Positions 51,342 through 63,918 of a stretch of 64,000 nt of DNA are shown here, one piece after another (within the stretch, counting starts at the first letter, position 1; each line of letters opens with the position of its first letter). Made by a program: the position numbers and the translations under genes. The stretch is from an uncultured Nitrososphaerales archaeon (lineage in GTDB: Archaea > Thermoproteota > Nitrososphaeria > Nitrososphaerales > Nitrososphaeraceae): positions 224,001-288,000 of the forward strand of contig CAVQMO010000005.1 of assembly GCA_963713605.1 (NCBI GenBank), written 5' to 3'. Below the pieces are notes generated by a model that saw only the letters and a program-made list of their open reading frames with translations, had not been told where the DNA came from and made no database searches.

Positions 51342-54219
51342 CTAGCTGTAATAGCCTAGAGATGAATCTGTTAGAAAGTAGTCTGGATATGGGTAGGCTG
51401 GTATTTGTTGCATTTGTTCCGGGGTTTGAACTTGGTGTTGTTGTTGTTGTTGTATTCGTTGCTGCTGTTGTATTTGTTCCGGAGTTTGAAGTTGTTGCTG
51501 CTGTTGTTGTTGCTGCTGCTGCATTTGTTCCGGAGTTTGTGGGACTACAGTCCAACGGAAGGTACTAGTTCTGGGCTCCAATATTCCCGATCCATCGATC
51601 ACTTGTAACTGAAAGACATGATTTCCTTGCTGAAGGTTATCTATGATCACAGGATTATTTGAACATGGCATTATTGGCGAATTGTCAATAAAACACTGGA
51701 CATTCTGAATCGGTACATTTTCATTTGGCTGCAGATGCAATGCAATACTACTGGATGATGTTGTACTATCATTGATTATTGGTTGGTTATTGCTGTCCAG
51801 TACTTGTAGAATGGTTATGGGTTGAACTGTATTAAATCCAGGCGTGTAGCCATCAAGTTGCTCGTTGATATTTCTTGGGTCGTAAGCAAGCCGCCTCTGA
51901 AACTGATCGCCGGCTACAGGCGAATACTGGTCAGAAAAATATGGAAAAGGATAGGCTGGTATTTCTTGTATTTGTTCCGGAGTTTGAAGTTGTTGCTGTT
52001 GTTGTTGCTTGTTGTTGCTGCTGCATTTGTTCCGGAGTTTGTGGGACTACAGTCCAACGGAAGGTACTAGTTCTGGGCTCCAATATTCCCGATCCATCGA
52101 TCACTTGTAACTGAAAGACATGATTTCCTTGCTGAAGGTTATCTATGATCACAGGATTATTTGAACATGGCATTATTGGCGAATTGTCAATAAAACACTG
52201 GACATTCTGAATCGGTACATTTTCATTTGGCTGCAGATGCAATGCAATACTACTGGATGATGTTGTACTATCATTGATTATTGGTTGGTTATTGCTGTCC
52301 AGTACTTGTAGAATGGTTATGGGTTGAACTGTATTAAATCCAGGCGTGTAGCCATTAAGCTCGATGTTAGGCAGTCCAACTTGTTGATCAAGAGGTGGCT
52401 GATAGTTCGTTGGAGGCAGTCCAATCTGTTGATCTAGAGCTGGTGGTTGCTGACTTGTAAGCAATTGTGAATCTGTTGCTGGCGGCGAAACTGTTGGTTG
52501 TCCAATCTGTTGATCTAGAGCTGGTGGTTGCTGACTTGTAAGCAATTGTGAATCTGTTGCTGGCGGCGAAACTGTTGGTTGTCCAATCTGTTGATCTAGA
52601 GGTGGTGGTTGCTGACTTGTAAGCAATTGTGAATCTGTTGCTGGCGTTGTAGAATTAGGCAATGAGTTCACAATCTGCTGTTGCGTGGTTGGTTGTCCAA
52701 TCTGTTGATTTAGAGTGGTGGTTGCTGACTTGTAAGCAATTGTGAATCTGTTGCTGGCGTTGTAGAATTAGGCAATGAGTTCACAATCTGCTGTTGCGTG
52801 GTTGGTTGTCCAATCTGTTGATCTAGAGGTGGTGGTTGCTGACTTGTAAGCAATTGTGAATCTGTTGCTGGCGTTGTAGAATTAGGCAATGAGTTCACAG
52901 TCAGTGGAAGGGCATTGGGACTTTGCAACGTGGACACATTCTGCATATTGGATAAGGTGGAATTGAAATCGCTTCCATCTTCCAAATCGTTGATACTTGT
53001 TGTTTTTATCATATCCATTGTAGTGGCCAAGTCCTGGGGAAGACTAAAAGTGCGTGGTTCGGACTGAACGGTCGCAGCTGGCGAAATTGCAGGCAGCAGT
53101 TTGGTTCTCTGTTGGTATGTTTGCTGGTGCAGTTTGATTAGCTGTAGCTGCAGGAGTAGTCTGGTTCCCTATTGATAGAGTTGTGCTGGTGCAGTTTGAT
53201 TAGCTGCAGGAGTAGTCTGGTTCCCTATTGATAGAGTTGCTGCTGGTGCAGTTTGATTAGCTGTAGCTGCAGGAGTAGTCTGGTTCCCTATTGATAGAGT
53301 TGCTGCTGGTGCAGTTTGATTAGCTGCAGTGGAAGTCAGTCTGGTTCCCTATTGATAGAGTTGCTGCTGGTGCAGTTTGATTAGCTGCAAGAATCAGTCT
53401 GGTTCCCTATTGATAGAGTTGCTGCTGGTGCAGTTTGATTAGCTGCAAGATCAGTCTGGTTCCCTATTGATAGAGTTGCTGCTGGTGCAGTTTGATTAGC
53501 TGCAAGTGCAGTCTGGTTCTCGGCAGGAATATTGATGGGAGGAGTCAGGGGTTCTTGATCATCTATGCTCAAGCCCTTAAAGTAATAAGTGATATGATTC
53601 ACATTGGTATCAATGCCTGGAGTCTCAAAATCTGGTTGCTCCCCCCGGCTGGCATTTCTATGATCAGAGATAATCATTGCAAATGGACTTGCTACATTTG
53701 AAAGGTCAAGCCCCTCCAAATCAAACTCGTACCTTTTCCAATCTCCGTTCAGAGTAATGTCATTACTCTCCACAGCATACTTTAGATTCTCAAAAGGCGC
53801 CGTTGAATTAGAAACCGATTGATTCCCTATTGCCGCAAACTTAATAACTTCTCCACCCAGTTCTCCTCTGGCAAAGAAGACAAGTCTGTTCGCTCCTGTC
53901 AAATCAAGGGGAGATGAGGGAGTGTACACGCAACACCAACATCCCCAACCGGAGAGGCACCGGTATTGTATACAAAAACTTGGCACATTTCACATATTGA
54001 TCCACCCCCTGCACTAACATTTCTTACCGTTAATGCAGCAACATCACCTGCAGTAGTAATGGGGATATCTTCTTCGATTGACAGTAATGGAAAGTCAGGC
54101 GTTTGCTGCGCAAACACTATACCTATAGACTGTGCAGAGATAACAACACCTAAACTTGCTACTGACATGAAACAAAAGATAGCCATAAGCGTCAAACTCT
54201 TTGGAATTAACAATTGCAT
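51342..54219 (-). CDS. Large secreted repeat protein: putative carbohydrate-binding domain, T/A/Q/P-rich repeat stalk, two Ig-like modules (multiple frameshifts)
   Basis: Signal ending VFAQ; LDLTGANRLVFFARGELGGE...LNGDWKRYEFDL (CBM11/CIA30-like); NQT and SQQPP repeats; duplicated QCFIDNS..PC...NLQQGNHVFQLQVID module. Confidence 0.7.
51465..52355. repeat. Near-identical duplication of the Ig-like + poly-Q module (offset 502 bp)
   Basis: 51541-51853 matches 52043-52355; poly-Q flanks differ in length. Confidence 0.9.
52405..52900. repeat. Coding tandem repeats (PATDSQLLTSQQPP.LDQQIGQPT; about 81- and 114-bp units)
   Basis: Five copies of TCCAATCTGTTGATCTAGAG...GAATCTGTTGCTGGCG. Confidence 0.9.
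53100..53520. repeat. Coding tandem repeats (AANQTAPAATLSIGNQT; 56-63-bp units)
   Basis: CTGGTTCCCTATTGATAGAG starts at 53161, 53217, 53280, 53341, 53399, 53456. Confidence 0.9.

Positions 54220-63918: not shown

Follow-up and report, generated by a model that had tools for sequence, protein, structure and literature searches.

What is a copper-radical oxidase doing beside a putative glycan-building pathway in an ammonia-oxidising archaeon? The question is raised by a locus in a window of 64,000 nucleotides (the whole stretch of DNA that was analysed), which is positions 224001-288000 of contig C5 of genome G000 (4.09 Mb, 15 contigs, 87% complete; genomes are designated G, contigs C and fetched loci L). 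The host is an ammonia-oxidising archaeon of the Nitrososphaeraceae, judging by homologues of its proteins and loci, which carry the name Nitrososphaeraceae or Nitrososphaerales. A sequence-only reading of the window had picked out five elements, a family GT2 glycosyltransferase, wecB, an AA5 oxidase, a repeat protein tipped with a carbohydrate-binding module (CBM) and a LamG-glucose/sorbosone dehydrogenase (GSDH) fusion, and had likened them to the CslA-GlxA and FbfA-FbfB systems of bacteria. All five are where that reading placed them, as examination of the open reading frames (ORFs) and Pfam matches confirms. The feature holds up, is conserved and has two parts: a core glycan cassette (GT2, WecB, a secreted protein designated f9, a pyrroloquinoline quinone (PQQ) dehydrogenase, a PIG-L deacetylase and an LpxD-like acyltransferase) and an optional module consisting of the AA5 protein and a CxxC CBM-fold partner. 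The genes are these:

51342..54219, minus strand: AA5 partner gene; N-terminal hydrophobic segment, CxxC CBM-fold domain (~53510-54090), repeats, and a small domain present twice
54451..57732, plus strand: AA5 copper-radical oxidase; twin-arginine translocation (Tat)-like signal SRKDFLK, AYA-Q site, catalytic core to ~56130, Fn3/Big_7 repeat tail
58276..59327, minus strand: WecB, non-hydrolysing UDP-GlcNAc 2-epimerase; Epimerase_2 in two pieces, one frameshift
59710..61064, minus strand: membrane GT2 with DAD, VDD and QRARW motifs; three pieces, two frameshifts
61648..63918, plus strand: fusion of LamG and glucose/sorbosone (PQQ) dehydrogenase; intact, 756 aa, N-terminal hydrophobic segment
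57818..58180, plus strand: small protein, hydrophobic at its N-terminus, without a Pfam family; a 61% identical homologue lies at the same place in G005

The GT2, wecB and partner genes and the tail of the AA5 gene (near 56332 and 57564) are frameshifted in the G000 assembly, and six-frame reading establishes that each set of pieces is one gene. The frameshifts are likely long-read sequencing errors, because genome G005 carries the same genes intact and in the same order (contigs C475 and C313, joined through a 141-bp overlap; the main genes being 68-92% identical at the protein level, with an AA5 of 984 aa, pieced together from the two contigs, and a GT2 of 456 aa), and because the extra base at 60740 is absent from contigs of two independent runs. 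On the same facts the reading of these genes as pseudogenes was rejected. The GC content of the region, 0.37-0.45, is near the contig mean of 0.395. The locus does not stop with the window: in G000 the ~9 kb beyond its end also contain f9, the LpxD-like gene and PIG-L.

The oxidase and its companion

The window AA5 has the parts that its family requires: a Cys-Tyr cofactor pair, an axial Tyr and two His ligands in a Kelch propeller with a C-terminal E-set (Pfam: Kelch, Glyoxal_oxid_N and GO-like_E_set, PF09118, with the Fn3/Big_7 repeats behind). The full catalytic set had been claimed from the sequence and is borne out: C127, W185-Y186, Y423-H424 and H503 are all matched in the alignment to the chain of GlxA (4unm, E 8e-40), and C127, Y186, Y423, H424 and H503 are invariant in 46/46 homologues. 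The gene, which starts at 54451, runs on to ~57732 through its repeat tail, a correction to that reading. As for the proposed Tat export, the signal is Tat-like, and it is a single-arginine variant (S-R-K-D-F-L-K) in the window; among the 70 archaeal AA5s whose start can be seen, 60 have a Tat-like motif (consensus S/T-R-R-x-F-L-K), and RR stands in 59 of 63 motif-bearing sequences. TatC is encoded in G000, and the region also has a tatA, beyond the window end. Hydropathy detects no transmembrane (TM) anchor in the AA5, which has a conserved signal-peptidase-like A-Q site instead. The protein is predicted, on these sequence features, to be a Tat-secreted copper-radical oxidase. Past the window end, tatA is preceded by a Tat-like secreted protein without Pfam family (L012:11220-12715), and in another locus tatA adjoins the partner gene (L271:6690-7013). 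Some AA5s, extended by long Fn3 arrays, reach ~1,690 aa (L269:2522-7585, L270:14052-19121), several paralogues occurring in one genome.

GlxA is the closest solved structure to the window AA5 and also supplies its best NCBIfam model, at 202 bits vs a cut-off of 800 (NF052501); the alignment offers no counterpart of GlxA's roughly 110-residue insert. The phylogeny goes against an origin in GlxA: archaeal AA5s form a single clade of 85 rows (support 100; FastTree, 268 rows) separate from five GlxA reference members that pass the NF052501 cut-off, and IQ-TREE on 43 rows agrees, with supports of 100 for the archaeal and 99 for the GlxA clade. No donor lineage is claimed, because both trees are midpoint-rooted and lack an approximately unbiased (AU) test. 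Of the 238 genomes of the family that were searched with a profile, 62 gave matches at E <=1e-30. From these, 41 genomes (61 places) were kept for their strong matches to the catalytic core, a few of which are incomplete or frameshifted; the other 21 had tail-only matches, fragments or a more distant group and were set aside. Several AA5 paralogues occur in some genomes. A second archaeal AA5 group (L291-L296) lies elsewhere in the tree and lacks the Tat-like start; one of its members adjoins a tyrosinase (L292:6042-6773).

The tightest companion of AA5 is the CBM-fold partner, not the GT2. The partner is found in 33/41 AA5 genomes vs 7/197 others (the unpublished G136 among the 7) and, within genus g14, in 21/28 genomes with AA5 vs 4/44 without; 35 of 54 partner places are within 4 kb of an AA5, usually divergent from it at 100-200 bp or directly downstream. 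Its tandem repeats are rich in T, A, N, Q and P, with several frameshifts in G000, and its CxxC is invariant. The CBM assigned by the sequence-only reading has no Pfam, NCBIfam or PDB sequence match; what sustains it is the predicted fold. The model, with a predicted local distance difference test (pLDDT) score of 77, matches CBM30 (Z 12.2, root-mean-square deviation 3.2 A over 145 residues) and CBM11 (Z 11.9, 3.4 A over 141); the top Foldseek and VIA-align matches are CBMs, tied with several other CBM-like folds, and the Atlas neighbours of the fold are CBM30, CIA30 and Exop_C. The partner is thus predicted to be a carbohydrate-binding protein with a jelly-roll fold of the CBM30/11/4 type. 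Co-folding lends weak support to a modelled AA5-partner contact: the score is 0.54, against 0.00 for the best control; the runs share at least 79% of contacts, and the pLDDT of the partner is at least 76. That mark is reached by 116 of 157 solved pairs and 2 of 215 mismatched pairs, at scores <=0.60 by 18 solved pairs and both mismatches, and a score at this level is wrong more often than not, unless the pairing is likely beforehand. None of 388 AA5-containing proteins has the partner domain fused to it, and a search for longer forms gave none, which is weak evidence. On its other side in the window the partner gene adjoins a secreted-type protein without Pfam family (50370-51182), homologues of which lie near AA5 in L043 and L050.

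The glycan cassette and its linkage to the oxidase

The GT2 orthologue is present in 66 of the 238 genomes (four unpublished ones, G134-G137, are counted in that tally alone). Neighbourhoods were fetched for 40 of 68 GT2 places, many of them on short contigs, and in these 40 loci the genes beside GT2 are wecB (34), f9 (31), GSDH (24), PIG-L (20) and LpxD-like (19), with DUF1080, Vgb-like, DMFA2-like and GH26-like genes also recurring. An intact WecB orthologue passes the TIGR00236 cut-off. The GT2 residues D189-x-D191, D279-D280 and Q316-R317-x-R319-W320 are invariant in 61/61 sequences; its model (pLDDT 88) has long helices flanking the GT domain on both sides, and in Foldseek its highest query TM scores (0.58-0.61) are to hyaluronan synthase and BcsA, at 13-20% identity to solved synthases. 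The modelled enzyme is likely processive. G000 contains many GSDH/PQQ-dehydrogenase paralogues (e.g., window 3275-4948), and a second LamG-GSDH, 72% identical to the cassette copy, is located at C1:563341.

Seen from the oxidase, the same genes reappear. When the 809 ORFs of 92 archaeal AA5 loci were clustered, the dominant neighbour was the CBM-fold protein (41 loci), followed by GSDH (15), a GT2 cluster (10, two GT2 kinds merged), PIG-L (10), LpxD-like (8), wecB (7) and f9 (7). Orthologues of the window GT2 with wecB and/or LamG-GSDH flank AA5s in L016, L017, L019, L026, L065, L094 and L112; these AA5s are ~50% identical to the window AA5, and the gene order takes several forms. The linkage is therefore conserved and not a product of chance, and chance juxtaposition was abandoned as an explanation. 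AA5 lies within ~10 kb of GT2 on one contig in G000, G123, G168, G183, G221 and G228, is linked to it in G005 through the contig overlap and probably in G117 (22-bp overlap), so that the survey called for by the sequence-only reading yields linked pairs in at least 7 genomes of 3 genera. Both genes occur in 27 genomes, AA5 alone in 14 and GT2 alone in 39 (no full-length AA5 found), the last including the single-contig genomes G014 and G078. Outside genus g14, GT2 is present in 11/13 AA5 genomes vs 18/153 others; Fisher p-values overstate such co-occurrence, because relatives do not count as independent cases and many of the genomes are not complete.

The cassette GT2 is not the only synthase to adjoin AA5. 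A glycan synthase gene (the window GT2, two other GT2 kinds, PelF-like or Wzm) is found in 19 of 41 AA5 loci of >=12 kb, 52 shorter loci having been set aside, vs 1.6% of random 20-kb G000 windows, a contrast that is inflated, the synthase references having been drawn from the same loci and the loci not being independent. Pel-like operons (PelF with DUF3492, a PelG-like protein and Spherulin4) stand directly downstream of AA5 in L060:2854-10120, L279:11693-19900 and L283:11157-16924, followed in L060 and L279 by PIG-L and LpxD-like genes; PelF is also in L125. A second GT2 type, together with deacetylases, lies beside AA5 in L061:1765-3759, L063:1032-5735 and L281:578-18965. This type has a long hydrophobic N-terminal extension and clusters with PIG-L, polysaccharide deacetylases and a NAD-dependent epimerase, the N-terminus of which may resemble UDP-sulfoquinovose synthase. 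Further GT2s adjoin AA5 in L066, L096 and L278, and a Wzm/Wzt cluster does so in L010.

Proposed mechanism and competing explanations

The reading that we prefer, at roughly even confidence, is that the cassette likely makes an amino-sugar envelope glycan, which the optional AA5-partner module likely oxidises outside the cell. WecB would supply UDP-N-acetylmannosamine (UDP-ManNAc), the signal-less PIG-L deacetylase and the LpxD-like acyltransferase would exchange N-acyl groups, and GT2 would build the polymer and extrude it. The AA5 would leave the cell already folded and be cut at AYA-Q; the partner, acting in trans, would guide it to the glycan, a part that it may play as a CBM because the secreted AA5 has no CBM of its own fused to it. 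AA5 would then oxidise primary alcohols (C6) to aldehydes, releasing H2O2, and the aldehydes might tie the coat together through cross-links or, on further oxidation, make it more negatively charged. That the glycan is oxidised or cross-linked is what we infer from the general AA5 reaction, which turns primary alcohols into aldehydes and is carried out by characterised members on many alcohols. Because the cassette can run without the oxidase, the module would be a finishing step rather than a synthase subunit.

A number of findings weigh against this reading. A synthase is not seen within the fetched stretch of 22 of the 41 long AA5 loci. Inside g14, GT2 shows no association with AA5 (16/28 AA5 genomes vs 21/44 others), and in G149, G157, G172, G174 and G179 AA5 is missing at the cassette's usual slot though it is encoded elsewhere. 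A second, frameshifted wecB at window 44376-45729, ~6 kb before the locus and 35-45% identical to the cassette copy, means that linkage alone is no proof of ManNAc use. The best Foldseek E-value of the GT2 goes not to a polymer synthase but to PcManGT, a small archaeal mannosyltransferase (7e-15, query TM 0.48), so its processivity is no more than likely. Mn-catalase does not track the oxidase: it is encoded by 17/41 AA5 genomes vs 72/197 others (89 of the 238 in all, G000 included, vs 6 with a haem catalase-like gene), and co-selection of catalase with AA5 was dropped for want of enrichment. Finally, in the biofilm of a cultured strain the genes of a cluster annotated like the cassette are slightly down, with log2 fold changes of -0.56 for GT2, -0.60 for wecB and -0.78 for PIG-L (PMC12448741 supplement 3).

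The PcManGT match opens the way to an unlikely alternative, that the GT2 is non-processive and makes a glycan that is linked to lipid or N-linked to protein, and that the AA5 module oxidises glycans of surface glycoproteins or glycolipids and not a secreted polysaccharide. The enzyme has only 456 aa, hydropathy gives it 3 strong TM segments, and it is far under the PgaC, NodC and CelA model cut-offs; the available text of PMC11559005 would also allow Nitrosocosmicus an amino-sugar glycocalyx. What holds this alternative down is the higher query TM to hyaluronan synthase and BcsA, the long helices on either side of the GT domain in the model, the GH26-like and DUF1080 genes that recur beside the cassette, and the adjacency of AA5 to Pel-like polymer operons. 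We regard as similarly improbable the notion that the module acts on foreign glycans or on small alcohols or aldehydes, or serves to make H2O2, its placement reflecting the clustering of surface genes in variable islands. The loci without a visible synthase, the lack of co-occurrence inside g14, the AA5 paralogues and the catholic taste of characterised AA5s for alcohols (as far as the sources at hand go) all fit it. The tie to one orthologous cassette across genera despite shuffled order does not, nor does the partner's staying beside wecB, PIG-L or LpxD-like genes where AA5 was not found (G166, G190, G191 and the G149 slot); besides, the hosts are regarded as H2O2-sensitive autotrophs.

Does the synthase, then, need the oxidase as an obligate subunit, in the way that CslA needs GlxA? 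The likeness to Streptomyces CslA-GlxA-CslZ (PMC11022532; PMC3543389, as far as their accessible text goes) extends to the same Cys-Tyr, Tyr, His, His set, to a Trp immediately ahead of the Tyr that is cross-linked (RWYP), and to an AA5 near a D,D,D,QxxRW GT2; GlxA being the nearest structure and model, and the repeated AA5-GT2 linkage, also speak for it. There are also differences. The archaeal AA5 belongs to its own clade, far below the GlxA cut-off, without GlxA's insert or TM anchor, and it carries an Fn3/Ig tail. The GT2 does not resemble CslA (22% identity over 74 aa to a CslA); AA5 (+) and GT2 (-) are on opposite strands, in contrast to the co-oriented cslA-glxA operon with cslZ seen in the reference arrangement (L284). 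The archaeal system has a CBM-fold partner of its own, wecB, PIG-L and LpxD-like genes stand in place of cslZ, and the window locus contains no GH6 gene (cslZ-type endoglucanase). AA5 is not detected in 39/66 GT2 genomes, those on a single contig included, and unrelated synthases adjoin AA5. An obligate pairing is thus very improbable: of the resemblance first proposed, the conserved linkage survives and the obligate pair does not. The Streptomyces oxidase is part of the synthase complex, in the available portion of PMC11022532; the archaeal one is optional and portable. To judge from the sequences, the archaeal system is not CslA-GlxA by descent, neither gene being a GlxA or CslA orthologue, and the locus would work like an oxidase-assisted glycan system.

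Other comparisons are looser. In Stigmatella FbfA-FbfB a galactose-oxidase-like gene likewise adjoins a glycosyltransferase gene (PMC3543389, accessible part); there the two are adjacent and divergent, whereas in the archaeon wecB intervenes and AA5 converges on it, a distinction of gene arrangement alone. E. coli NfrB with WecB resembles the cassette in tying a processive-type GT2 to wecB, which has been read as the sign of a ManNAc glycan (PMC8669469, in the text available); compared by description, the archaeal system has an oxidase module instead of the c-di-GMP-binding MshEN extension and outer-membrane secretin. PgaC/IcaA provides the best NCBIfam model for the GT2 (TIGR03937), at 85-89 bits vs a cut-off of 422, and hyaluronan synthase, BcsA and PcManGT provide its best fold matches. 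A bolder version of the preferred reading, which we hold only tentatively and as distinctly less probable, is that an archaea-specific AA5 clade forms a heterodimer in trans with the CxxC CBM-fold subunit, evolved independently, and docks onto at least 4 unrelated polysaccharide pathways, cross-linking or charging the glycocalyx in convergence with CslA-GlxA; the four would be, just as tentatively, the ManNAc-type GT2 cassette, the second GT2 type, the Pel-like operons and the Wzm/Wzt clusters.

The archaeal cell coat

A scan for promoters and terminators over the locus, with a tool not built for archaea, came out at chance level. RNA contigs from a rhizosphere study (runs X17 and X20; small word shares of 0.10 and 0.08) match partner, AA5, wecB and LamG-GSDH at >=90% identity, and none of them matches GT2; they are not counted as evidence.

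In a cultured strain, expression is on record for a cluster matched to the cassette by annotation alone, NFRAN_0782-0799, which carries a GT2, a glycosyl hydrolase, wecB, a Vgb-like gene, an LpxD-like gene, a PQQ dehydrogenase, PIG-L and DMFA2 (PMC12448741, supplement 3). Its slight decrease in biofilm weakens the earlier proposal of a biofilm exopolysaccharide (EPS) and favours a constitutive coat; it has no bearing on AA5, and the term 'galactose oxidase' was not found in the supplements of that paper. A 2013 survey reported no GlxA orthologues in archaea, in the portion of the paper available (PMC3543389). The statement that no such system had been described in archaea agrees with our search of full-text literature, which found no earlier description of the feature and no paper combining Nitrososphaeraceae with galactose oxidase, most subscription papers being outside its reach. 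The genome paper on N. viennensis is said to contain the first proposal of EPS genes and may list some of the cassette genes.

For making the outer coat in soil ammonia-oxidising archaea, the composition of which PMC11559005 leaves undetermined in Nitrosocosmicus, the cassette is a family-wide candidate. Since a like-annotated cluster is expressed in a cultured strain, this candidate is testable now. The AA5 module extends copper-radical oxidases to archaea, as a distinct clade with a dedicated partner of no known family, and opens new biocatalyst space; coupling of an oxidase to a glycan synthase would have arisen here in a second, independent case. A secreted enzyme producing H2O2 is unexpected in organisms regarded as peroxide-sensitive. 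Soil ammonia-oxidising archaea likely modify the glycan of their own cell coat by oxidation, in parallel with the Streptomyces system.

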